Positions 4,963-22,342 are shown, counted from the stretch's first letter. The stretch is DNA of 64,000 bases from an uncultured Christensenella sp. (GCA_910586345.1 CAJUHC010000001.1:38164-102163); one strand, 5' to 3'. Made by a program: numbers and translations. Notes: generated by a model not told the origin, from the letters alone.

Positions 4963-5266
4963 GCGTAATCCTCCGCACTATATCGTTTACTATTTTATCG
5001 ATGTTTTTAATTCTTTCGGCGCGGTACTGCGCGGACTCAGCCCTTTTAACCGTAATTTCGGACTCGTAATTTTTCCGCGCTTGCTCTTTCGCGGTTTTAA
5101 TGCTTTTTTCTCGTAAAGCCTTGCACTCGGCTTCGGACAGCGCTAAAATCTCCGCGCTCCTGTTCTCGGCGTTTTCCGCGATTTCAGCCGCTTTTTTAAT
5201 CGCGGCCGCTTTGATTTCAGCCGCTTTTTCCTCGGCTTCGTTTATACTGTTTATAATTTCCTGCAT
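4949..5266 (-). CDS. V-type ATPase small stalk subunit (G/H-like)
   Basis: 105 aa with an Ala/Glu/Lys-rich helical sequence. It is the first gene of the operon, as in the ntpF position of E. hirae. Confidence 0.6.
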   Translation of the reverse strand: MQEIINSINEAEEKAAEIKAAAIKKAAEIAENAENRSAEILALSEAECKALREKSIKTAKEQARKNYESEITVKRAESAQYRAERIKNIDKIVNDIVRRITRGGC

Positions 5267-5341
5267 ATAAAACCCCGATTGAATTCTATTGAATATTTTA
5301 CCATATTTTACTTTTTATTGCAATGAAATCGCCGTGAAATT

Positions 5342-6673
5342 TTAAGCATAGCCGTACTTTTTGCGGAATGCGATAACAAACGCCGCCGTAACCGCAAGCG
5401 ATATTATCTCCGCAAAAACGGTTGCCGACCATACTCCGTCGATATCGAGAAAAACAGGAAAAACCAGAACCGCGGCAACCTGAAACACGAGCGTTCGCAG
5501 AAAGGATATAATTCCCGAAACCAGCCCGTTGTTCAAAGCGGTGAACATAGACGAACCGAAGTAGCTGAACCCCGCAATCAGAAACGCAGGCGCGTATATT
5601 CTGAAACCTCTCAAAGTCATATCGAAAATTTCGCCGTCGTAACCGAAAATTTTAAAAAAAGGATATGCGAGCGCTTCCGATAACGCAGTCATCGATATTC
5701 CGCAAACCGCGGTAATTATCATACTTTTCTTAAACAGATTTTTCAGCTCTTCCCTGTTATCCGCGCCATAATTGTAAGCGAAAAGCGGGGCGCAGCCGAC
5801 CGCATAACCCATAAAAATAGCGTAAAAAATCATTGCGACGTACATCATAGTTCCGTACGCGGCAAGACCGCCGTCGCCCGCTACAATCTTCTGAATCTGA
5901 AAATTATAAAGCATAGTTACGACTGCGGCGGATACGTTTGCAAGAAACTCGGAAGAACCGTTGGTACAAGCTTTAAGAAAGGCTCGCCCGTAAAACCTCG
6001 TTTTCGTAAGGCGCAAAAGGCTGTTGTTTTTCGCAAAAAAGTATATAAGCGGCGCTACTCCGCCTATCACCTGGCTTGCGGCGGTAGCGGCCGCCGCTCC
6101 GGCAAGCCCCCACTTGAACCCCGCAACAAATACCGCATCGAGAATTATGTTCGCAAAGCCTGCCGCCGCCGTAACTATAAGACCGAGACGGGGCTTTTCC
6201 GCGGCGACGAAAAAACTCTGAAATACGTTTTGCAGGATAAAAAACGGCTGCGCCCCGATAAGCACTCTGCCGTAAAGTACGCAGTAATCGTAAGTTACGC
6301 CTTCCGCGCCGAACCATTTCGCAATCGGAGGAACAATAAACTGACCCGCCACGGCGATTATCGCGCCTATACCGAATGTGACGTAAACAAGCATTGAAAA
6401 ATAAGCGTTCGCCTTTTCTTTATCGCCCGCGCCGAGCGTTTTTGAAACAAGCGCGCTGCCGCCCGCGCCGAGCATAAACCCAATCGAACCGAGCACGAAA
6501 ATAAGCGGAAAAATCAGACTTATCGCCGCTACCGCCGACGCTCCGGCGAAATTCGAAACGAACAGACCGTCCACAACGCTGTAAACGCTCGTAAACACTA
6601 TCATAATAATTGACGGAAATACGAATATTAATAATTTTTTGAAAGTAAAATGTTCAGATAACTGTATACGCAT
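5342..6673 (-). CDS. MATE family efflux transporter
   Basis: 443 aa with about 12 TM segments and an N-terminus typical of MATE proteins (FTFKKLLIFVFPSIIMIVFTSVYSVVDGLFVSNF). Confidence 0.8.
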   Translation of the reverse strand: MRIQLSEHFTFKKLLIFVFPSIIMIVFTSVYSVVDGLFVSNFAGASAVAAISLIFPLIFVLGSIGFMLGAGGSALVSKTLGAGDKEKANAYFSMLVYVTFGIGAIIAVAGQFIVPPIAKWFGAEGVTYDYCVLYGRVLIGAQPFFILQNVFQSFFVAAEKPRLGLIVTAAAGFANIILDAVFVAGFKWGLAGAAAATAASQVIGGVAPLIYFFAKNNSLLRLTKTRFYGRAFLKACTNGSSEFLANVSAAVVTMLYNFQIQKIVAGDGGLAAYGTMMYVAMIFYAIFMGYAVGCAPLFAYNYGADNREELKNLFKKSMIITAVCGISMTALSEALAYPFFKIFGYDGEIFDMTLRGFRIYAPAFLIAGFSYFGSSMFTALNNGLVSGIISFLRTLVFQVAAVLVFPVFLDIDGVWSATVFAEIISLAVTAAFVIAFRKKYGYA

Positions 6674-8327: not shown

Positions 8328-10669
<2,342 letters not shown>

Positions 10670-10882
10670 TTTTACACTCTCTTTTCCGTCTACATTATTA
10701 ATATAAAACTTTCGCGCCCCCGTTAAACAAAAAAACCACAAATTTTTTTACTTAAATTTCCGCCGTCCTGCAAACACTGCGAATAAAAATGAATAAATTT
10801 TTAAAATTTATGCATAAAAGACGCCGGAACAGCCACCATAACAATAATTTATAAATTTGCGTGTATTTTACCGCCATTTTAC

Positions 10883-10911
10883 TTGCCTGCAAACCGCGTT
10901 TATGATAATAT
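10883..10911 (+). promoter_or_regulatory. Putative sigma-A promoter (TTGCCT-17-TAATAT with a TG extension)
   Basis: -35 at 10883-10888 and an extended -10 TGaTAATAT at 10903-10911, about 48 nt upstream of the ATG at 10959. Confidence 0.4.
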
Positions 10912-10958
10912 AGAAATACTTACATTATAATATAAAACCCAACAAGGAGGTTAATTTT

Positions 10959-13900
10959 ATGAGTATTTTCAGAAAAATACTTATAGCCGTACTTGCGCTG
11001 AGTATTACCGTCTGTGCCGGAATCGCTCTCGCTGCCTGTAAGGATGACAACAAAATCTTAAATCCCGACGGCGAAACCGTTTTTAACGGCAATTACGAAA
11101 TCACGGTCAAATCGCAAGGCGGACTATTGCTCGACGGCATCAAACTCACGTTCGAGAAAGACGGAGTGCAGTACGGAGAACAGTGCATAACCAAACAGGG
11201 CAAAGCGACAATCAAGCTCGCTCCCGACGTTTACGACGTTAAAGTCGATACGAGCGCGAAAAACGGTTATTTCGTACCCGCAGGCGCAGAGTATAAAACG
11301 AAAGCAGACTCGAAAGACGTTTCCGTTATTCTCACGTCGAAAGTAATAGAGTCGGAAACGCCCGCAAACACCAAATATCAACTCGGCGACGTAATGTACG
11401 ATTTCAGTTTCGTCGACGTCGACGGAGTTACGCATAAACTTTCCGAAACTCTCAAAACGAAGAATACGGTAGTCCTCAATTTCTGGGGTACGCAATGCCA
11501 ACCTTGCAAAAACGAGTTTCCCGCTTTACAGAGCGCGTACGACTCGTACAAAAACAAACTCGAACTGTTCGCATTATCGAGTTATGCCACGTCGATGAAC
11601 GGCGCGGACACCGAAGCAGATATAATAAAATTCAGAGACGTCGATAATAAAGGCGCGTACAAATTCCCTATGGCTCTCGATACCGAAACGAAGATTTACA
11701 GCTATTTCGATTTGAGCAAAGGATACCCTACCACCTACGTTATAGACAGATACGGCGTAGTCGCCTGGCGGCTTGCCGGAACGAACCCGAACGAAGCCTC
11801 GTGGAGAGCGGTTTTCGGCAAGTATACGAGCGATAACTACTCGCAGTCTATAAATCCCGGCGGCAGTATCGGCGGAGACGAAAACATAGACAGGGTCCCG
11901 CCCGACGAAGGTCTTTCAACTCCCGCAAGCGAAGATATCCGTAACGCTATATGCAACAATATAGCGCAAGAAGACGTTGAATTCTATTTCAACGAAGATA
12001 ACCCCAACGCAGATACGAACTGGCCCTGGCAAATCGGCGAAAAGGACGGAAACAAGTATCTTTACGCTTCGAACGTAAACACCAAAGAATCCTGGTCGAC
12101 GATTTACTGCAATTTAACGCTCAACGGCGGAGAAAGTTTGTCGTTCGATTACTATATAAACACCCATTCGACCAACAACGCGCTTTACGTAGTCGCAAAC
12201 GGCGCAATCATATGCGAACTGTTCGGCGAAAGCGACGGTTGGTTGACACAACAAGTTTATACGGCTAACCGCAGAACGACTTTGAATATTTCGTTCGTTT
12301 ATATAAAGAACGACGCCGTACTCGAAGATACTCCCGTCTATATCGACAATATAAAGATATTCAATCCTGCCGAAAGCGGAGAGCCTCTCGACATTGCTTA
12401 TTCCGTTACCGATAACACGGAATTCAAAGACAACAAGTACAACGTTAAGCTCGAACTTGACGACGAAGGATTATATCATTACGTAAACGGCGAAAACAAT
12501 TCGATATTATATGCGGACATTTTAGGCGTTGCAAGTTGGGCAGAGAAGCATTTCGGCAGTACGACGTTCGAATTCCTTGCGGAAGACGCCGAAACCCCTT
12601 CGACTTACAGGTCTTCGCTCTACTATCTCGCATATTTCAAAATGTCGAACCTTCAAGGCGTGGGACTCGAATTTAATTTCGGTTACACCGATGCGATAAT
12701 CAAGCTGTACAACCTTCAAGCGTTTGCTACAAGCGGCAACGGCTATCTGCCCGTAACCGAAGAAGTCAAAGAAATGATTTGCGCGTTTATCAATTACGCT
12801 TACGAAATCGGTATCGTCGACGACGAATACTACGACGACCAGTGGCTGGAATTCTGTTACTATTTCAAACACTGGAACAGCGAACACATCTATATCGATA
12901 AAAATCTTTATATAGACGAAGTACCCGTAGAATATGTATCCGCAACAGACTCTTACGTCGTAAACTCCGAAACGGGTCACGCAGACAAGAACGTTTATAT
13001 CGATTTCCACGACAACGGCGTTTTCGGAGTAATCGTAAACAACCGTCTGAAATATTACAGCTTAGAGGACGCTATCAATGCGGAAATGTTCGCAAGTGTT
13101 TACGGCAATAATTATACGGAAATTATGAAATCGTATCTTAAAGCCGCCGACGCTAACGAAGGCGAATTAAAAGGCTTTGTCAAGGCGGATAAAAAGCTTA
13201 CGGATATTCTTGGCGAAACTTTAAGATATACCGAAAGCATACTCGAAATGGTATGCGACGCGGATTGGAAAATTTTCGCAAACTGTTACAGATTAGGCGA
13301 CTGCGATACGGCGAAAAATCCTTTAAAAGGTCTTATATTCGATTTTGCTTACGATGCGCAACTCGGAACAAACAATGTTGAAATCAAAGAAATAATCAAT
13401 ATCAACGCGCCCGAATACGAAGCAGGCGGAGGTATTAAATTCAAATTTACGCCCGAAACTTCGGGAGTACACCTCTTCTCCTCGTCGTATAAGAGCAACG
13501 CAGACCCCAGAATTTTAGTTTACAATTCCGAATTCAATTTAATTGCCGAACAGGAAAACGATATCAGATACGACCATTTTAATCTTGAAAATCCCGATAA
13601 CTTCTACTTGTACGTTAATTTAAATGCTAACGAAACCTACTATATCACCGCATCGCTCAACGGACTCGCACAGGCGACTTACAAAATGGATATTTCTTAC
13701 GTTGCTCCTTATGTAGAAATGCTGCGGGTAGCGACGACAGGCGACGGTACGTGGCTCCCCAGACCGAGCCTTGACGAAAACGGAAATATCAAGTACGATG
13801 AAAACGGCGAAATAGTTTACAACTGGAACGATACGTATTACGACGCGGTTGAAACCGCTTACGACCGTTCGGCGGACGTTTACAGAGTGAGCAATCCCGA

Positions 13901-14249
13901 CGGCACCCGCGGCGCGGTATTGTATATCGACTTCGTCCATACCACGTATTACAGTCTGACAAGCGAAGACGGCAAAAAGATATATTATCCCACTCTTTAT
14001 GAGTTAATCACCCTTTACAACCGTTTCGACAGCGATACGAAAGCAGAGTTATTGGAATATTACAAACTTGCAACCGCAAGAGACGAGTCCGACGAACTTT
14101 ACGGTCTTATCGAGGCTGACGGCAGATTGGTTGAAATACTCAGAAAGTATATGAACGACAGTTACAACGACAATCCTAACGAAGATAACCGCGCTTGGGA
14201 AATGTTCGCTTGCTACTACGAAACGTACGGAACTCCCGAACAAAATTAA
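10959..14249 (+). CDS. Large lipoprotein with a TlpA/ResA-like thioredoxin domain and about 800 aa of uncharacterised C-terminal domains
   Basis: Signal peptide with lipobox (IALAAC). Redoxin motif VVLNFWGTQCQPCKNEFPALQ. Strong RBS AAGGAGG. The rest has jelly-roll- or PPC-like stretches that I cannot assign to a function. Confidence 0.7.
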   Translation: MSIFRKILIAVLALSITVCAGIALAACKDDNKILNPDGETVFNGNYEITVKSQGGLLLDGIKLTFEKDGVQYGEQCITKQGKATIKLAPDVYDVKVDTSAKNGYFVPAGAEYKTKADSKDVSVILTSKVIESETPANTKYQLGDVMYDFSFVDVDGVTHKLSETLKTKNTVVLNFWGTQCQPCKNEFPALQSAYDSYKNKLELFALSSYATSMNGADTEADIIKFRDVDNKGAYKFPMALDTETKIYSYFDLSKGYPTTYVIDRYGVVAWRLAGTNPNEASWRAVFGKYTSDNYSQSINPGGSIGGDENIDRVPPDEGLSTPASEDIRNAICNNIAQEDVEFYFNEDNPNADTNWPWQIGEKDGNKYLYASNVNTKESWSTIYCNLTLNGGESLSFDYYINTHSTNNALYVVANGAIICELFGESDGWLTQQVYTANRRTTLNISFVYIKNDAVLEDTPVYIDNIKIFNPAESGEPLDIAYSVTDNTEFKDNKYNVKLELDDEGLYHYVNGENNSILYADILGVASWAEKHFGSTTFEFLAEDAETPSTYRSSLYYLAYFKMSNLQGVGLEFNFGYTDAIIKLYNLQAFATSGNGYLPVTEEVKEMICAFINYAYEIGIVDDEYYDDQWLEFCYYFKHWNSEHIYIDKNLYIDEVPVEYVSATDSYVVNSETGHADKNVYIDFHDNGVFGVIVNNRLKYYSLEDAINAEMFASVYGNNYTEIMKSYLKAADANEGELKGFVKADKKLTDILGETLRYTESILEMVCDADWKIFANCYRLGDCDTAKNPLKGLIFDFAYDAQLGTNNVEIKEIININAPEYEAGGGIKFKFTPETSGVHLFSSSYKSNADPRILVYNSEFNLIAEQENDIRYDHFNLENPDNFYLYVNLNANETYYITASLNGLAQATYKMDISYVAPYVEMLRVATTGDGTWLPRPSLDENGNIKYDENGEIVYNWNDTYYDAVETAYDRSADVYRVSNPDGTRGAVLYIDFVHTTYYSLTSEDGKKIYYPTLYELITLYNRFDSDTKAELLEYYKLATARDESDELYGLIEADGRLVEILRKYMNDSYNDNPNEDNRAWEMFACYYETYGTPEQN

Positions 14250-14352: not shown

Positions 14353-14775
14353 ATGAAAATAATTAAACGCATTTCGCTTATTCTTGCCGTTGCGCTTGCA
14401 GTCGTATGTATGGGCGCGTTGGCTTCGGCTTGTAATTCCGCAACGGATTTTACTATTACCGTCTACTATTCGGACGGAACGACGTTAGTTGACGGCAGTA
14501 CGGAGAAATACGGTATTCAGATTTGCTATTTGGATACGGATACTAACGAGCTCGTAAGTTGCAGTACCGCGGAAGGCTTGGTAGGAGCCGACGGGAAAGC
14601 GACTATAAACATTGACGCGGTTGAAGCGGAAGCTCCCCAATCGGGAAATATCAAATACGAAGTTCACGTGCTTTCCGTCGACGGAACCGAAGAACTCAAA
14701 GAGAACGTATACGTAAGCCGTTCAAACGCTTCCGTCAAAGTAGTTCTTAAAAACGTAAACGCGCCTGCAAAATAA
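14353..14775 (+). CDS. Small lipoprotein, paralogous to the N-terminal Ig-like module of the 1096-aa lipoprotein
   Basis: Trimmed to the ATG at 14353 with an AAAGGAG RBS. Begins MKIIKRISLILAVALAVVCMGALASAC (lipobox). ITVYYSDG...GKATINID resembles YEITVKSQGG...GKATIKLAP in the upstream protein. Confidence 0.6.
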   Translation: MKIIKRISLILAVALAVVCMGALASACNSATDFTITVYYSDGTTLVDGSTEKYGIQICYLDTDTNELVSCSTAEGLVGADGKATINIDAVEAEAPQSGNIKYEVHVLSVDGTEELKENVYVSRSNASVKVVLKNVNAPAK

Positions 14776-14916: not shown

Positions 14917-15489
14917 ATGGAATACACATTACAAGATAAATTCAGTTTTATAAAACGCGATATTGTAAAGTATACATCGAAGAATCCCGTTGCAATCGTC
15001 AAAGAAATGATGCACAAGGACTATATAAACATTCACGGACCCGAGCATCATTTTCTTGACGGCGCCGCATTTGCAACCGCAATGAAAAACGCAGGCGGTA
15101 AATTCAGCCTTGACGAGTGTTTGAATGAACTTGAAAACAGAGCGGCAAAAATGCCGGGAGCAATGTGCGCTTATTGGGGCGTTTGCGGTTCGACGGCGTC
15201 CGTTGCGGCAGTTCTGTCGATAATACACAAGACGAGTCCGTTAAGCACGGATACTTACTATAAAGACAATATGGAATTCACTTCCGCAGTTCTTTCTCAA
15301 ATGAGCAAAATCGGAGGGGCGAGATGTTGTAAGAGAAACGCATTTTTGTCCCTTTCTTACGGGGTAAAATTCGTAAAGAAAAATTACGGTATCGAAATGG
15401 AAATAGACGATATTGTTTGCGAGTTCACACAAAAGAACAAACAGTGCTTGGGGAATAAGTGCCCATTTCATTTTGCAAATAAAATTTAA
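14917..15489 (+). CDS. Cys-rich cytoplasmic protein of unknown function (resembles the DUF5714 family from memory)
   Basis: 190 aa with no signal peptide. Motifs are HGPEHHFLDGAAF, CAYWGVCGS, ARCCKRN and CLGNKCPFH. The family assignment is recollection only. Confidence 0.4.
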   Translation: MEYTLQDKFSFIKRDIVKYTSKNPVAIVKEMMHKDYINIHGPEHHFLDGAAFATAMKNAGGKFSLDECLNELENRAAKMPGAMCAYWGVCGSTASVAAVLSIIHKTSPLSTDTYYKDNMEFTSAVLSQMSKIGGARCCKRNAFLSLSYGVKFVKKNYGIEMEIDDIVCEFTQKNKQCLGNKCPFHFANKI

Positions 15490-15652: not shown

Positions 15653-17296
15653 TTACTTATTCATAGCGGCTTGTATTTCCGTATCCAGAATTTCGTAAGT
15701 AAGCTTTCCGTTGACGGTAAAGGTTATTACGCCGTCTTTATCGAGTATCAGCGTTCTGGGAGCCGCAGGCGCAGTTACGCTGCTGTCGAACGATTTGAAA
15801 ATGTTTTCCTGCGTGTCGTGGGTAAACAATAAATTCCATTCATTGAAACCGAGCCTGTCGATAACTGTCTGAACTCCTTCGTCGTTTACGCTGTTGTTGA
15901 TATGAACTATTATTATGTCGACGTCGTCGCCGTAATGCTCCTTTGCCTCTCTGAAATCGGGCAGCTCCTCTTTACAGGGGTCGCAGGTCGTATACCAGAA
16001 ATTTATTACGGTTACGGTTCCGTAGAAATCGGAAAGCTTAATGCTTTCGATTTTTTCACCGTCGTCATTGTAAGCGCCTGCCGTATCGTAAACTGTTCCG
16101 AAAGTGAAATCGGGGAACTGCTCGCCTACGTCGTACTTTTTATCGGCGACTTCGGCAACCGAGAAGAAATTATAGTAGACGAGCGCGGTTACAAGCACTG
16201 CGAGAGCGAGAGCCCAAGCGGAGAATTGAAGCCAGAAACTTCTCTTCTTTATTTTTCTTTTAACCGCTTCCGCTTTGTCCTCAGCCGTCTGAACCGTTTC
16301 AACCGGGCTTAATTGCGCTTCAGCAACGTTAGCCTCCGATACCGTGGTTTGTTCCACTTTCTCGGCAGTTATAGTTTTAACGGAAACTTTTTCTTCTTCC
16401 GTAACTGACGTATCTATTCCCGCAAGTACCAATTTGCTTCCCTTCCAGCTTATCGCTTTCGTAGGACAAACGGGAATACACTCTCCGCAGTTTATACACT
16501 CGTGGTCGCCGACGTGCTTAATATCCATTTTACAGGTCTGAATACACATTCCGCAATCGACGCATTTCTGTCTGTCGAGTTTGACGCCTATAAGCGCGAT
16601 TTTGTTGAAGAACCCGTAAATCGCGCCGAGCGGACAGAAGAAACGGCAGAAACAACGGTAAATAAACACGCTCGCTACGATAAACGCGACTAACAGACAG
16701 AATTTCCAGGTAAACAGATAACCGAGTCTGTTGAAAAGCGAAGCGTTGCTACTGTTCACCAGCAGCCCTCCCGCGCCGCCGAAAGTTCCGGCGGGACATA
16801 TATATTTACAGAATGCGGGCACTCCGTTATAAAGCAACGGGACCGCAATAACCAGAACCGCGAGCAGAACGTATTTTAAATACGATAAAAATCTCGTATA
16901 ACGGCTCTTTTTGAGCTTAGGAGTTTTTATTTTGTAAAGCAGTTCCTGACCCAAACCTACGGGACAGAAAAATCCGCAAATAGTCCTTGCAAATATCAGT
17001 CCGAGCAAACCGAGTATACCGAGTATGTAATACGGCGCAGTGGTATTCGAGTGGGCAAGCGAGTCCTGTAAAGCTCCGAGCGGACACGCGGTTACCGCTC
17101 CCGGACAGGAATAACAATTCAATCCCGGGGTACACAGCTTTTTCGTACCGCCCTGATAAATATCTCCCGCAATAAAACCCTTTAAATTTGCGTTAAACAG
17201 CAATGCCGAATATATCTGTATGAGCCGACGCTTCGAGGGCGCGTGGTTTTTAAACCACAGTCCGGCTTTTTTGAAAAAACTTTTAACCTTAGCCAA
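15653..17296 (-). CDS. NapH/MauN-like membrane polyferredoxin fused to a C-terminal extracytoplasmic TlpA-like thioredoxin domain
   Basis: 547 aa. Three CX3CP motifs (CGFFCP, CKYICP, CRFFCP). Two ferredoxin motifs (CVDCGMCIQTC, CINCGECIPVCP). An acidic linker is followed by a TM helix and then VINFWYTTCDPCKEELPDF. The TTG start overlaps the upstream stop. Confidence 0.7.
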   Translation of the reverse strand: MAKVKSFFKKAGLWFKNHAPSKRRLIQIYSALLFNANLKGFIAGDIYQGGTKKLCTPGLNCYSCPGAVTACPLGALQDSLAHSNTTAPYYILGILGLLGLIFARTICGFFCPVGLGQELLYKIKTPKLKKSRYTRFLSYLKYVLLAVLVIAVPLLYNGVPAFCKYICPAGTFGGAGGLLVNSSNASLFNRLGYLFTWKFCLLVAFIVASVFIYRCFCRFFCPLGAIYGFFNKIALIGVKLDRQKCVDCGMCIQTCKMDIKHVGDHECINCGECIPVCPTKAISWKGSKLVLAGIDTSVTEEEKVSVKTITAEKVEQTTVSEANVAEAQLSPVETVQTAEDKAEAVKRKIKKRSFWLQFSAWALALAVLVTALVYYNFFSVAEVADKKYDVGEQFPDFTFGTVYDTAGAYNDDGEKIESIKLSDFYGTVTVINFWYTTCDPCKEELPDFREAKEHYGDDVDIIIVHINNSVNDEGVQTVIDRLGFNEWNLLFTHDTQENIFKSFDSSVTAPAAPRTLILDKDGVITFTVNGKLTYEILDTEIQAAMNK

Positions 17297-18098
17297 GTCC
17301 TATACACTCCAGACAGATAGTTACGGCTTTATCGAAAATACCGGAAACGTTGCCGTTACACGCGCCGGCTATAATAAACGAAAAAGCTACGCAACCGACA
17401 CAGACCTGTATGCCGAGTTTGAAATATTTATGATTCAGTATTTCATATATTTTACCGTGTACTAATTGTACGGGTTTATTTCCTGATGCAAGCTTTTTGG
17501 CATGTTCAATTTGCTTCTTTGCCGAAATACCTTCGTAAACGCTGATTGCACTAGCAAACACGAACACCGAGAAAAACCAGGGCAGAATATTTTTAGCGGC
17601 TTGCAGGACTTCTTTCGTCGCATTATCAGAAAACGTAAAACTCGACGGCAATGCCAGATACACTATCGAATACACGATTCCCGCCAGTGCGACCGACGAA
17701 CAGCATAGCCACAGTATTTTCAATATCTTTTCTTCGCGTTTGATAAATCCGTAACTTTCCGCGAGTTCCTCGCCGACGTTGACGGGCATACGCTTTTTTA
17801 AACGCATAAGCGAATAGCGCGGGTCTTTATATGGTGATTTTTTAGGCTTTACGGGAAATACCTCCCAAACGATAAACCCTCCGACAATCATTACCGCCCA
17901 AATCCAGAAAGCAGGCGATATATGGAAAAACCGCTCGGAAAGACCTTCCTGAGTGAATGTAAATTTATTATCCCCGACGGGACCCGTGAAATAGTTGTCG
18001 AGTACCTGCCAGATAAACAAAGCTCCGACTATTGCCGTCATAACGCCGAGTGCAATGCCATAATAAAGACGAACCGTTTTGTTTGTCTTTTCGTTCAT
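17289..18098 (-). CDS. Polytopic membrane protein ending in a CxxC motif (tail resembles the CD1871A-family CXXC motif)
   Basis: Trimmed to the ATG at 18098, with GGAGG 5 nt upstream. The C-terminus reads ...VCVGCVAFSFIIAGACNGNVSGIFDKAVTICLECIGLG. The gene overlaps the polyferredoxin gene by 8 nt, which suggests translational coupling. Confidence 0.55.
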   Translation of the reverse strand: MNEKTNKTVRLYYGIALGVMTAIVGALFIWQVLDNYFTGPVGDNKFTFTQEGLSERFFHISPAFWIWAVMIVGGFIVWEVFPVKPKKSPYKDPRYSLMRLKKRMPVNVGEELAESYGFIKREEKILKILWLCCSSVALAGIVYSIVYLALPSSFTFSDNATKEVLQAAKNILPWFFSVFVFASAISVYEGISAKKQIEHAKKLASGNKPVQLVHGKIYEILNHKYFKLGIQVCVGCVAFSFIIAGACNGNVSGIFDKAVTICLECIGLG

Positions 18099-18365
18099 AT
18101 ACACCTCCGCTTTTTTTATAATTATACATTTATTATATCAACTTATACATTTAAAGTCAAGTAATTTATCATTGTAAATTTGTCAAGCGTTTGCGAGTAG
18201 TTTTTTAGAAATTTTTAAGAATTTTTCTTGAAGACTACTAAAAACACCTCTTGGAGAAGTGTTTTTCGGTAGTAAGCATATCAAATTATATGGGAAAAGT
18301 CAAGCAAATAGCTATCATTTATGGAAGTACTTGACAATGCGTCCGCGATAGAGTATCCTTAATGT

Positions 18366-19725: not shown

Positions 19726-19980
19726 TTACGACGTAAACCACAAATACAGCAATATGGCGACCACTCCCATCGAAGCGATAAATATGCCCAACGGAAGCAA
19801 TATAGCCGAAAACATACCACGTACCATCTGCCAATATTCTTTACGGCTGACTTTGCGTTTTTCTTTTTTGTCCTTTTTGTTCTTCGACGAAGGGTCGTAC
19901 CACGCAAAACCTTCCACGTTCATATCCGCAAAAGTGGTTTCGGTATCCAAACCTTCGTCCTTTTTATTCTTTCGGGACAT
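19726..19980 (-). CDS. Small single-pass membrane protein, last gene of the opp-like operon
   Basis: 84 aa with a Lys-rich N-terminus and one C-terminal TM helix. It overlaps the OppF-like gene by 17 nt. A hairpin at 19688-19724 follows. Confidence 0.5.
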   Translation of the reverse strand: MSRKNKKDEGLDTETTFADMNVEGFAWYDPSSKNKKDKKEKRKVSRKEYWQMVRGMFSAILLPLGIFIASMGVVAILLYLWFTS

Positions 19981-22342
19981 CTTCCGCCTCGGGTTTCACA
20001 GTATCGTTTTCAGGTTTCTTTCTGAAAATATCCTTAACTTTATCTATGAAACCTTTCTTTACAAGCTTCGCCTCTTCTTCAGCGTTCCTCTGCTCCTCTT
20101 CGTATTTGCGTTCGAGCATCTGAACGTCTTCTTCGGTATTATATAGGTGGCACGCGCAGAAATGACCCTTTTCCACTTCCTTATAGATAGGCGCTATACG
20201 TCCGCAAATTTCCATACAACTGTCGCATCTGGTATGGAATTTACATCCCTTGGGAGGATTAACAGGCGAAGGTATGTCTCCTTTGAGAATAATTCTGTTC
20301 ATTTTCACATTCGGGTCGGGAACGGGAACAGCCGAGAACAGCGCGCGAGTATACGGATGAAGCGTATTTTCGAATATGGATTCCTTGCTTCCGTATTCTA
20401 CTAAACTGCCGAGGTACATAACACCGACTTCGTCGGAAATATGCTTAACAACGGAAAGGTCGTGAGAAATAAATATATACGTAAGACCGAGCGATTTTCT
20501 CAGTTCGATAAGCATATTGATTATCTGAGCCTGAATGGATACGTCGAGCGCGGATACAGGCTCGTCGCATATGACGAGTTCGGGTTTAAGCGCGAGAGCG
20601 CGCGCTATACATATTCTCTGCCTCTGTCCGCCCGAGAACTCGTGCGGATACCTTTCGAAATAATGCGGTTGAAGTCCGCACATCTTCATTACGCTGATTA
20701 TATAATCGTGATACTCTTCTTTGGAAACGAGCTTGTGCTGTTTAACCGCTTCGCCGATTATATCGCCGACGGTAAGTCTAGGCGAAAGACTCGCGTACGG
20801 GTCTTGGAAAATCATCTGCATATTCGGACGCAGTTTATCGAACTCGCGGTTTCCGAGCGAGGAAATCTTCTTACCCTTAAACCAAACTTCTCCGCTCGTA
20901 ACGTCGTACAGTCTTAAAATGGTTCTGCCCATTGTAGTCTTTCCGCATCCGCTTTCGCCGACTATACCGAGCGTCTTACCTTTTTCGAGCTTAAACGTTA
21001 CGTTATCTACCGCCTTCAAAGTTTTGGTAGGCCTGCCGAAGAAATCTTTGCCTATAACGAAATGCTGTGACAGCGCGTCTATTTCGAGGAAAGCTTTTTC
21101 GCTTGCGCACTCCTCAGCCGCCGCCTGCTCGGCCTTTTTACCCGCAACCGAAACCAACAGAGGATAACAAGCCGTAAGCACTACAACAGCGAGCGCCAAT
21201 ACACTGATAATAACAGGTATTACAGCCGAAATCCTGATAACGCACAGTTCTCTTACTATATCGTAAGTACTGTCGTCTATTATCTTATCGACTATAGCTA
21301 CCGTAATATTGAATCCGCCCGCGGTTCTTATATATTTTATCTGTTCGGTGCCTTGAACGACTACGTCTTTCGTAGCAAGATTGCCTAATATATCGGAAAA
21401 GAAACCGCCCGCAACCGCCGCTATTATCATAATAAGCAACGTCAGCGCAAAAGCAATTACGTAGAAAACCAAATCGTTCTTTTTATTTGAAAACAGAACG
21501 GAAACGTTGTCTGCGGTCAATACCGCGAACAAAACGGAAATTATCGCGAGAAGCAGGAAACCCGCCGACGACGTCGAAGCAAGCGAGGATAGTTTATCTC
21601 CGCTATAACCTGCCGTACCGTTTATCAAAAGCTGTATAAAACTGCTTTTCGTCACCGCGCCGTTCGCTCCGACTTCAACGAGCGGAGCAGACGCAAGCCC
21701 TAATATGACCGCTAGTACAGCTATACGCGCAAGCGAATAAATAAACTTGACAAGATTGACTCTGTCTTTCAAATATCCGCGGTTAATTAATGCTTTAAAT
21801 ACGTAATAGGTACAGAAAACAGCGCTCGTAAGCGTAAGCCCGCAAACCGTAGCCGCGTTATAACCCGTTCGCGTAACCGTGTCTCCGCTTTTTATTATTA
21901 CGCAGTTTAACGCATAAAACAACGCTGAAAACACTGCGTACGAAAGGTAAGTCAATAACGCGAAGAATTCAATATTGCACTCTTTTTTGTACGCATATTT
22001 AAGCACCGCCTTGTATACCGTAATGCCTGCGGAAGCTATAACCGCGAGCAATCCGAAAATCGTGAGAAGCATACCCGAAAGCATAACCGCACGAGCGGCT
22101 TCTTTCGCCGCGCCCGTTAAAAGCGATACAGAATTTATATAATCGCCGTCGAAAAAGCGGTAAATAAAATAATCGGGTAAACCTTCCGCGTTCGAAGAAA
22201 CGCCTATAAGGAAAGTGAATAATAATGCAAGCCCCGCACCCGCGAGAGCAATGAAAGGTGAAATTTTAGGCAATAAATCCAAAAATCTTGATTTAGCGGA
22301 TTTAACTTCGCCAACAGTAACAGAATTAACTTCGTCAGCCAT
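19964..22342 (-). CDS. OppF/DppF-type ABC ATPase fused to an N-terminal polytopic membrane domain of about 420 aa
   Basis: 792 aa. Residues 1 to about 420 contain roughly 8 hydrophobic helices. These are followed by Walker A GESGCGKTT, the signature FSGGQRQR, Walker B LVICDEPVSALD and an Opp-type C-terminal Cys motif. The ATG overlaps the OppD stop. Confidence 0.8.
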   Translation of the reverse strand: MADEVNSVTVGEVKSAKSRFLDLLPKISPFIALAGAGLALLFTFLIGVSSNAEGLPDYFIYRFFDGDYINSVSLLTGAAKEAARAVMLSGMLLTIFGLLAVIASAGITVYKAVLKYAYKKECNIEFFALLTYLSYAVFSALFYALNCVIIKSGDTVTRTGYNAATVCGLTLTSAVFCTYYVFKALINRGYLKDRVNLVKFIYSLARIAVLAVILGLASAPLVEVGANGAVTKSSFIQLLINGTAGYSGDKLSSLASTSSAGFLLLAIISVLFAVLTADNVSVLFSNKKNDLVFYVIAFALTLLIMIIAAVAGGFFSDILGNLATKDVVVQGTEQIKYIRTAGGFNITVAIVDKIIDDSTYDIVRELCVIRISAVIPVIISVLALAVVVLTACYPLLVSVAGKKAEQAAAEECASEKAFLEIDALSQHFVIGKDFFGRPTKTLKAVDNVTFKLEKGKTLGIVGESGCGKTTMGRTILRLYDVTSGEVWFKGKKISSLGNREFDKLRPNMQMIFQDPYASLSPRLTVGDIIGEAVKQHKLVSKEEYHDYIISVMKMCGLQPHYFERYPHEFSGGQRQRICIARALALKPELVICDEPVSALDVSIQAQIINMLIELRKSLGLTYIFISHDLSVVKHISDEVGVMYLGSLVEYGSKESIFENTLHPYTRALFSAVPVPDPNVKMNRIILKGDIPSPVNPPKGCKFHTRCDSCMEICGRIAPIYKEVEKGHFCACHLYNTEEDVQMLERKYEEEQRNAEEEAKLVKKGFIDKVKDIFRKKPENDTVKPEAEDVPKE

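Follow-up and report, generated by a model that had tools for sequence, protein, structure and literature searches.

A two-gene locus on the minus strand of a 64-kb stretch of DNA from an uncultured Christensenella sp. (hereafter the window) encodes a multi-helix membrane protein (the partner) and a 547-amino-acid (aa) protein in which a NapH-like membrane module, two ferredoxin-type Fe-S clusters and a TlpA/ResA-like thioredoxin are fused, and from their sequences we consider it fairly probable that the two form a membrane complex carrying reducing equivalents from the cytoplasm to a cell-surface thioredoxin-fold domain. A preliminary description had read the pair as a fused, Fe-S-based transmembrane conduit for reductant; coupling, topology and direction of flow are well supported in silico, whereas an exclusively Fe-S mechanism is not. 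To our knowledge, every established route by which reducing power is exported to extracytoplasmic thioredoxin-fold proteins is of the DsbD/CcdA type, with cytoplasmic thioredoxin as its source of electrons. Such routes serve cytochrome c maturation, spore cortex synthesis, the repair of surface methionine sulfoxide and copper-centre assembly. A non-homologous, Fe-S-wired route, if true, would revise the view of envelope redox homeostasis in strict anaerobes, in which ferredoxin, not NADPH and thioredoxin, is the main low-potential currency.

The domain boundaries of the fusion protein were determined with Pfam and NCBIfam models and were as previously described, the three CX3CP motifs, two ferredoxin clusters, acidic linker (about 62 aa) with its additional transmembrane (TM) helix and redoxin domain each being present where they had been placed (Table 1). 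In Pfam, Fer4_5 (PF12801) matched three stretches of the protein (47.4 bits; cutoff 22), approximately residues 238-290 were covered by 4Fe-4S models of the ferredoxin type, and Redoxin (PF08534) covered residues 390-531 (64.9 bits against 26.6); a Fer4_18 match remained below threshold. The ferredoxin motifs read as C245xxCxxCxxxC255 and C267xxCxxCxxxC277P, and the redoxin active site as W434YTTCDPCKEELP446, with C438-D-P-C441 at nucleotides (nt) 15974-15985 and a cis-proline at P513. Direct reading of a printed alignment showed that ResA also carries Glu at the position of E444, three residues past the CxxC. The features of TlpA/ResA/CcmG-type proteins (WxxxCxxC, cis-proline and a TM anchor with positive charges on its cytoplasmic side) are all present, C438, C441 and P513 being invariant, and the NCBIfam scores lay below the equivalog cutoffs for ResA (68.8 versus 170), TlpA (53.2 versus 230), StoA (40.5 versus 210) and DsbE (27.9 versus 123). 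Structurally, the domain matched ResA, Etrx1/2, StoA, TlpA and the C-terminal domain of DipZ (TM-score to target 0.8-0.86), and Foldseek returned thioredoxin-fold matches alone for the full-length model. A peroxiredoxin function was considered and rejected: the additional matches to AhpC-TSA (PF00578) reflect a common fold, and the active site is of the thioredoxin type.

Twenty cysteines proved to be invariant across 91 full-length homologues with 54-73% identity (23 in the first alignment), namely the three CX3CP pairs, eight of ferredoxin type, the thioredoxin pair C438/C441 and C55/C61/C64/C71. The same 20 are still invariant in relatives from other lineages at 44-47% identity, and the motifs are therefore not a matter of chance. 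In unfused relatives (37-46% identity), 17 of the 18 module cysteines are invariant and C163 is conserved in at least 90%; the linker differs in both length and sequence among homologues. Six of the invariant cysteines (C55/C61/C64/C71 and C163/C167), all predicted to lie in outward loops, had not been mentioned in the preliminary description. Escherichia coli NapH, aligned at 27% identity, shares C107/111, C217/221 and both cluster motifs and carries no Cys where the fusion protein has C55/61/64/71 and C163/167; because it lacks those six, the membrane part of the fusion is, on this alignment, a NapH-like scaffold with six extra cysteines. The NapH/MauN layout is retained, in that there are four TM helices, two of the CX3CP motifs are placed on the cytoplasmic side and a 2x[4Fe-4S] domain follows at the C-terminus; a PF12801 match in a multi-TM protein is likewise present, and the scores against TIGR02163 (NapH/MauN; 62.4 bits, curated cutoff 213.05) and the NapH equivalog NF007013 (44.8 bits, cutoff 234) fall far below the cutoffs.

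The partner had been described as a polytopic membrane protein, which its five predicted TM helices bear out for the window, but the unit conserved across the family is a single TM helix followed by a CXXC tail. The first four helices are weakly conserved and lineage-specific, and strong conservation is confined to the final helix with its tail, K259, A260, C264, E266, C267, G269 and G271 being present in 100% of 81 partner sequences. The likeness of this tail to the CD1871A-type CXXC motif, noted in the preliminary description, became a formal family assignment, since residues 236-271 match NCBIfam NF040920 (CD1871A_fam) over model positions 3-38 of 38 (37.1 bits, cutoff 32). The placement of CD1871A beside 4Fe-4S proteins, also mentioned there, held as well, the gene carrying the tail lying directly upstream of a NapH-like gene in the loci examined; the family signature of one TM helix and a K-A-x-x-I-C-x-E-C-I-G-[LI]-G tail, encoded beside a NapH-like 4Fe-4S protein, is thus complete here. 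As a single query, the 47-aa tail returned no matches in a word-index search, and an alignment of 24 tails was used as a profile instead; it retrieved mostly peptides of 33-79 aa, many carrying the NCBI name 'thioredoxin'.

Two annotation faults are exposed by these searches. Dozens of CD1871A peptides of 40-50 aa, consisting of one TM helix and the CXXC tail (P0121-P0240), are labelled 'thioredoxin' by NCBI, a name that is wrong because they are far too short for a thioredoxin fold. In Pumilibacter muris (L015 9053-9979; P0209), NCBI lists a 33-aa 'CD1871A family' protein, and the open reading frame (ORF) with that tail encodes 308 aa and is homologous to the window partner over its full length (39% identity, E = 3e-54); in at least one genome, therefore, the last 33 residues alone of a long partner stand under the family name, and long partners may be systematically truncated in annotation. 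A literature match to 'CD1871' concerned an ABC permease under the numbering of another strain and was set aside as irrelevant.

The two ORFs were found where the preliminary description had placed the locus (15653-18098), its end coinciding with the partner's ATG at 18098. The 8-nt overlap that it had reported was read directly in the DNA: the partner ends in ATA GGA CTT GGC TAA, and the fusion starts at cTTG GCT AAG. The same 8 nt (17289-17296, minus strand; also L007-L022 and others) encode the GLG-stop end of the partner and the MAK start of the fusion, which constrains both genes and suggests translational coupling. With a promoter candidate 28 nt upstream of the first ORF in addition to the overlap, the pair looks like a translationally coupled two-gene operon, as judged from the DNA.

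Comparison with other genomes showed that the two genes travel together. The exact fusion protein occurs on at least 24 metagenome contigs in the same neighbourhood; the closest genome is a mouse-gut metagenome-assembled genome (MAG) labelled uncultured Christensenella sp. (92% identity), and P. muris is a cultured carrier (56% identity). At least 511 stretches encode relatives among GTDB species representatives, and a search with the N-terminal module yielded 369 clusters at 50% identity with E <= 1e-30. By these counts the system is abundant, being conserved in hundreds of species of Clostridia from human and animal guts (gut MAGs labelled as Clostridia). In 80 of the 80 other GTDB species genomes fetched, the gene immediately preceding the fusion, and running the same way, is that of the partner, with an 8-nt overlap or a gap of at most 16 nt, and its product ends in K-A-x-x-I-C-x-E-C-I-G-L-G throughout. 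Similarly, in five of five loci with free-standing peptides (Oscillospiraceae, Lachnospiraceae, Solobacterium and two unassigned metagenome contigs), the gene for a CD1871A peptide of 40-53 aa overlaps that for a Fer4_5/ferredoxin/redoxin fusion of 470-523 aa, and another Redoxin surface protein adjoins in two of these loci (2/3 loci in one tally).

Below approximately 48% identity, the representative search returned many NapH-like proteins of 270-310 aa without a thioredoxin domain. A metagenome scan seeded with such unfused proteins gave 80 loci, of which 76 could be evaluated, and in which an overlapping CD1871A peptide gene precedes the NapH-like gene. A Redoxin/TlpA-like gene, with a product of 175-424 aa carrying CxPC or CxAC (confirmed by Pfam), is the immediate upstream neighbour, in the same orientation, in 70 of the 76 and occurs somewhere in the locus in 75. 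In one further arrangement (P0360 in L096; 3106-6447, JGI metagenome 3300033148, one contig), a 44-aa CD1871A peptide is followed by a fusion of a GltD-like domain (Fer4_20 + Pyr_redox_2) to the NapH-like module and then by a 203-aa TlpA lipoprotein, and fusions of 700-750 aa carry two tandem thioredoxin-like domains. Because unfused operons, the GltD-like fusion and the tandem-domain variants all keep the components linked, the three components stay together while being fused, split and re-fused, and the cytoplasmic face can acquire an input domain that depends on NAD(P)H. Homologues are thus not consistently unfused and unlinked, and the association of the fusion with its CXXC partner, first seen at a single locus, extends across the family.

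Further variants were encountered among the relatives. Three module relatives without a thioredoxin domain (P0311, P0315 and P0319) have a hydrophobic C-terminal extension of 130-200 aa with no Pfam match. In four loci (L134, L136, L139 and L140), an unfused napH-like gene is followed by an ABC ATPase-like gene with a membrane protein of approximately 425-458 aa on either side. Next, L136 and L140 have a pair resembling a response regulator and a histidine kinase, L139 has just a regulator-like ORF, and in L134 neither was seen; these downstream genes were judged by their N-terminal sequences only.

Topology was assigned from Kyte-Doolittle segments and counts of lysine and arginine (K/R) under the positive-inside rule. 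As had been proposed, the TlpA domain is predicted outside and the Fe-S clusters inside; hydropathy and charge agree, and a cytoplasmic TlpA domain is not predicted. The same placement is supported by the TlpA proteins of the unfused systems inspected, which are lipoproteins with lipoboxes, and by the N-terminal extensions of relatives, which comprise 0, 1 (N-out), 2 or 4 extra helices or a soluble domain and leave the N-terminus of the module cytoplasmic in all cases; in particular, the GltD-like NAD(P)H/flavin adenine dinucleotide (FAD) domain must be cytoplasmic, which puts the N-terminus of its module inside. In the partner, five predicted helices with the N-terminus inside direct the CXXC tail outwards, and the free-standing peptides, in which a basic N-terminus precedes a single helix and a tail of this kind, should therefore be oriented likewise. 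A gene fusion of partner and module would contradict their predicted opposite topologies, and none was found among the N-terminally extended representatives inspected. Two CX3CP pairs are accordingly predicted at the inner face, and one CX3CP pair, the four-Cys loop and the CXXC of the partner at the outer face.

These features suggest the following sequence of events. A low-potential cytoplasmic donor, probably ferredoxin here and a fused NAD(P)H/FAD oxidoreductase in one relative, would reduce the two ferredoxin-type [4Fe-4S] clusters at the inner face. Electrons would then cross the NapH-like four-helix module, with its two inner CX3CP pairs at the ends of TM2 and TM4 and its six cysteines in outward loops, and the one-helix CD1871A unit of the partner would contribute a CXXC pair at the outer face. 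The outer cysteine centre, which could work as a disulfide relay, through a cluster next to a disulfide in the manner of ferredoxin:thioredoxin reductase (FTR), or in both ways, would reduce the CDPC disulfide of the tethered TlpA/ResA-like domain by thiol-disulfide exchange, and this domain would in turn reduce exported clients, one candidate being a neighbouring TlpA-domain lipoprotein. In this scheme we infer the donor and the clients, the direction in which electrons flow, how the CX3CP and loop cysteines react chemically, and independence from CcdA. Outward flow is argued from the reductive ResA/TlpA type of the thioredoxin (CxPC, Glu and cis-proline), from thermodynamics, from the NAD(P)H-oxidoreductase fusion and from the proposal that PF12801 NapH-like proteins act as transmembrane electron conduits to extracytosolic flavin mononucleotide (FMN) domains (PMC8238504).

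An electron path built from Fe-S clusters throughout is supported in part. The two ferredoxin-type clusters of the earlier Fe-S-based conduit are recognisable, but the other cysteines are not recognisable Fe-S sites. Buttet et al. favour disulfide chemistry for CX3CP motifs because the iron content of NosR, approximately eight Fe, covers its two 4Fe-4S clusters alone (PMC5928378). With six invariant outward cysteines in the module and the CXXC of the partner, a relay passing electrons from Fe-S clusters to dithiols, or a disulfide beside an FTR-like cluster, is no less likely than a wire made purely of Fe-S clusters.

Several points weigh against outward reduction by the complex. TM1 is only weakly hydrophobic, and the counts for unfused loci overstate independence because the 80 loci were not de-replicated. 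AlphaFold gave high confidence for the thioredoxin domain alone; the membrane module reached a predicted local distance difference test (pLDDT) score of 50-70 in the full-length model and, modelled alone, a pLDDT of 49 with a predicted TM-score (pTM) of 0.28, values from which the proximity of the cysteine groups is not readable, and a PDB sequence search matched thioredoxin and ferredoxin domains alone and no solved NapH-like membrane module. CX3CP motifs have no function assigned in any family (Buttet et al., PMC5928378), reduction of a disulfide on the far side of the membrane by a one-electron Fe-S donor lacks a ready explanation, and an Fe-S cluster at the outer face would be hard to assemble in a Sec-inserted protein. 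A quinone-linked role is conceivable, since NapH itself is regarded as a quinol dehydrogenase, and the TlpA domain may in reality be reduced by CcdA. The literature searched yielded no experimental work on any family member.

The bearing of CcdA on this question was examined in the window and at related loci. The polytopic membrane ORFs of the window are V-ATPase c, a 658-aa ORF with seven TM helices, MatE, two Opp permeases, an ABC ATPase with a membrane domain, YitT and a GtrA-like protein. The scan of these ORFs turned up no member of the DsbD/CcdA family, which is in line with the earlier statement that the window holds no ccdA-like gene, the 658-aa ORF lying outside the scan and, beside V-ATPase c, being likely V-ATPase subunit I. 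Likewise, a heuristic for CcdA (two PCxxP-type motifs and at least four TM helices) gave no candidate in the flanks of approximately 160 loci, a result that covers flanks and not whole genomes, and neither the fusion nor the partner matched PF02683 in Pfam. A 'ccdA' encountered in a paper on Clostridioides difficile WalRK was rejected, being the E. coli ccdAB toxin locus. The idea that the system is an alternative to CcdA is accordingly a hypothesis, drawn solely from the absence of ccdA in the 64-kb window and those flanks. No nap or mau genes were found in the window or in 80 related loci, nor any nap, nos or rdh gene nearby, and no FMN-binding domain or ApbE gene was found in the window or the related loci, the extracytosolic domain being the redoxin.

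If CcdA is present elsewhere in these genomes, the complex could act as an auxiliary stress branch beside it, the module reducing the TlpA domain for, for example, the repair of surface proteins after oxygen, as in pneumococcal CcdA-Etrx-MsrAB, and not replacing CcdA in general. This alternative shares its mechanism with outward reduction by the complex and differs from it in scope alone. Pneumococcal Etrx1/2, among the closest structural matches of the redoxin domain, act in extracellular oxidative-stress resistance (PMC3914529), and one related peptide/fusion locus lies near Fur and rubrerythrin genes; on the other hand, no Msr domain is fused among the fusions examined, and no Msr-like family occurs among the conserved neighbour clusters, although the neighbours were not scanned for Msr specifically. 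We regard so restricted a role as unlikely.

Thioredoxin-fold proteins of this type can act on particular partners, TlpA reducing ScoI and CoxB and ResA reducing apocytochrome c. It is conceivable, if improbable, that the thioredoxin likewise serves the module: kept reduced by CcdA or otherwise, the TlpA domain would maintain or mature the outer cysteines of the module, the job of the complex lying elsewhere, such as CcoG-like metal reduction or a surface acceptor. Eight invariant cysteines predicted to face outwards, of which six belong to the module and two to the partner, would have to be shielded from oxidation; PF12801 includes the cupric reductase CcoG, to which the sub-threshold Fer4_18 match may be added, and lipoproteins without an assigned role cluster beside the operon. 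However, such a role requires an extra, unlinked reductant, none being linked in the loci fetched; it leaves the variants with two tandem thioredoxin-like domains unexplained; no metal-binding or FixG_C domain was detected with Pfam; and second TlpA-domain surface proteins adjoin in 40/80 and 2/3 loci, as in an outward relay.

Least probable is a quinone-linked or oxidative system, in which the module would exchange electrons with menaquinone and the TlpA domain would be either reduced by menaquinol or a DsbA-like oxidant passing electrons inwards as in DsbB/VKOR, since the homology to NapH, proposed to oxidise quinol (PMC5928378; PMC8238504), and a layout parallel to that of bacterial VKOR-thioredoxin fusions are set against a thioredoxin of the reductive ResA/TlpA type (CxPC, ResA-like Glu) and not DsbA-like, a cytoplasmic 2x[4Fe-4S] domain and a GltD-like NAD(P)H/FAD fusion that point to a soluble cytoplasmic partner, carriers that are gut MAGs labelled Clostridia, and the step from a thiol (about -250 mV) to low-potential ferredoxin-type clusters, which established knowledge suggests to be thermodynamically unfavourable.

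Among the neighbours of the operon (Table 1), the convergent 1096-aa lipoprotein is, from its TlpA-like domain, a candidate downstream client or relay; approximately 800 of its residues belong to no detectable family, and homologues of approximately 960 aa stand convergent to the module in 40 of 80 genomes, where they neighbour other large lipoproteins with immunoglobulin-like or SpaA-like domains. In two loci of the window's own species (L002 and L005, approximately 5066-6070 and 10194-13477), this lipoprotein is called as two ORFs (125 + 952 aa), which could be strain variation or a frameshift, and an rve-family integrase (insertion sequence element) lies immediately upstream of the partner gene, where a serine-dehydratase-like gene sits otherwise. 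Between the lipoproteins and the operon, a Cys-rich DUF5714 protein (14917-15489, plus strand) gave a partial match to the metal-binding double-selenoprotein MbdU (92.7 bits, cutoff 600); as it was confined to 6 loci of the window's own species, it probably lies outside the system. Elsewhere in the window (19964-22342, minus strand), the second ATPase gene of an Opp-type ABC operon encodes a 792-aa protein whose ABC_tran/oligo_HPY domains are preceded by a hydrophobic stretch of approximately 400 residues with approximately eight predicted TM segments, an N-terminal extension that is unusual for an OppF-type ATPase.

Table 1. Coordinates of the operon, its domains and neighbouring genes in the window, and predicted topology of the fusion protein (residue numbers refer to the encoded protein; D/E, aspartate and glutamate)
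Feature	Nucleotides	Strand	Residues	Details
1096-aa lipoprotein	10959..14249	plus		convergent; lipobox LAAC; ResA/TlpA-like domain at residues 142-279 (WGTQCQPC), nt 11382-11795
Small lipoprotein	14353..14775	plus		140 aa as called; homologues in 24/80 loci; part of a lipoprotein cluster often downstream of the module
Fusion gene	15653..17296	minus		547 aa; TTG start within the partner's Leu-Gly codons; from ORF, Pfam and NCBIfam
TlpA/ResA-like redoxin domain	15656..16129	minus	390-547	extracytoplasmic (predicted); pLDDT ~90
Fifth TM helix (TM5)	16157..16240	minus	~353-380	membrane, cytoplasm to outside; W355, A360, W361 and A364 conserved
Acidic low-complexity linker	16241..16426	minus	~291-352	inside (predicted); ~62 aa, E-rich; ends KRKIKKRS; pLDDT 32-40
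2x[4Fe-4S] ferredoxin-type domain	16427..16585	minus		cytoplasmic (predicted); C245/248/251/255 and C267/270/273/277
CX3CP motif 3, C217RFFC221P	16631..16648	minus	217-221	cytoplasmic end of TM4; common to NapH
CX3CP motif 2, C163KYIC167P	16793..16810	minus	163-167	after TM3, predicted outward; NapH reads WEWINP there
CX3CP motif 1, C107GFFC111P	16961..16978	minus	107-111	cytoplasmic end of TM2; common to NapH
Cys cluster C55-x5-C61-x2-C64-x6-C71-P	17081..17134	minus	55-71	TM1-TM2 loop, predicted outward; invariant including unfused relatives; not in NapH
NapH-like four-TM module	16592..17239	minus	~20-235	TM 25-43 (weak), 91-109, 137-155 and 199-217; Fer4_5 x3
Partner gene	17289..18104	minus		five-TM membrane protein; 271 aa from GTG, 269 aa from ATG at 18098 (gene callers' start)
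CD1871A-family unit of partner	17292..17399	minus	236-271	last TM helix and predicted extracytoplasmic tail ...NGNVSGIFDKAVTICLECIGLG-COOH; C264 and C267 invariant
Sigma-70-like promoter candidate	18132..18160	minus		TTGACT-17-TATAAT with upstream TG; 11/12 consensus positions; consensus match only
Fusion topology: N-terminus			1-24	inside; 8 K/R
Fusion topology: TM1			25-43	membrane; weak, hydropathy 1.2
Fusion topology: loop with C55-C71			44-90	outside; 2 K/R
Fusion topology: TM2			91-109	membrane; hydropathy
Fusion topology: loop, C107/C111 at inner boundary			110-136	inside; 7 K/R
Fusion topology: TM3			137-155	membrane; hydropathy
Fusion topology: loop with C163/C167			156-198	outside; 3 K/R
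Fusion topology: TM4			199-217	membrane; hydropathy
Fusion topology: C217/C221 and ferredoxin domain			217-290	inside (predicted)
Fusion topology: TlpA domain			381-547	outside; 32 D/E versus 13 K/R

Beyond the single locus, we tentatively propose, at rather less than even confidence, that these genes represent a previously unrecognised class of transmembrane disulfide reductase, in which a NapH-like module with cysteine centres at both faces and a CXXC peptide of approximately 40 residues would pass electrons from ferredoxin or NAD(P)H via Fe-S clusters to surface thioredoxins, replacing or bypassing CcdA/DsbD in much of the gut Clostridia and perhaps using an FTR-like site in or beyond the membrane. 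If a non-homologous, Fe-S-wired route exists, the redox state of the fused thioredoxin would offer a tractable read-out for the widespread but opaque CX3CP NapH-like module, and could help to settle the role of CX3CP in NapH, NosR and RdhC. The family name CD1871A points to Clostridioides difficile 630, which is genetically tractable.

In its proposed job, the transfer of cytoplasmic reducing equivalents to an extracytoplasmic TlpA/ResA-like thioredoxin, the system resembles DsbD/CcdA, DipZ of Mycobacterium tuberculosis and ScsB. DipZ also joins a membrane module, of the DsbD type, to an outward TlpA-like domain in one polypeptide, and it is its C-terminal domain that the window redoxin matches structurally; the variants with tandem thioredoxin-like domains recall the multi-domain relay of DsbD. 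However, the membrane modules are not homologous, neither PF02683 nor paired PCxxP motifs being present here; DsbD/CcdA has two membrane cysteines, compared with 18 invariant cysteines and two ferredoxin-type clusters; it has no counterpart of the separate one-helix CXXC peptide needed here; and its donor is cytoplasmic thioredoxin, whereas ferredoxin or NAD(P)H acting via Fe-S is the expected donor of the present system. We therefore consider the system, as far as its sequence features indicate, to be DsbD-like in function alone and not a DsbD; support for the DsbD-like activity itself, the reduction of extracytoplasmic thioredoxin-fold proteins by a cytoplasmic reductant, comes from gene linkage, the fusion variants and predicted topology.

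The scaffold itself is homologous to that of the PF12801 proteins NapH, NosR, RdhC (PceC), MauN and CcoG, which share the four TM helices, two inner CX3CP motifs and C-terminal 2x[4Fe-4S] domain. In those proteins the extracytosolic partner is an FMN-binding domain, NapG or a reductase, whereas here it is a thioredoxin fold; NapH is without the third CX3CP motif and the outer four-Cys loop, and the group has no obligate CD1871A partner. With FTR and the HdrB/CCG-type proteins the system shares the logic of passing electrons from ferredoxin-type clusters through a disulfide to a thioredoxin fold, but these are soluble proteins of the cytoplasm or plastid with no detectable sequence relation, and the cluster-adjacent disulfide that defines them is a proposal here. 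Bacterial VKOR-thioredoxin fusions are laid out in the same way, combining a redox module of four TM helices, which has loop and membrane cysteines, with one further TM helix and a thioredoxin-like domain that faces outwards, but VKOR is quinone-dependent and oxidative, has no Fe-S domain and is unrelated in sequence to the module.

NapH-like systems were defined in a flavinylation survey that made an FMN-binding or ApbE partner a requirement, and thioredoxin fusions go unmentioned there (Meheust et al. 2021, PMC8238504). Searches for CD1871A, for PF12801/NapH-like proteins with thioredoxin and for NapH/TlpA/CcdA found no paper on this architecture in the literature covered, and databases show the domain combination under generic names alone, such as '4Fe-4S binding protein' and 'redoxin family protein'. 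Taken together, these comparisons place the system as a NapH-like transmembrane electron conduit with a thioredoxin output, and there is a substantial chance that it constitutes a mechanistically new class of disulfide reductase.

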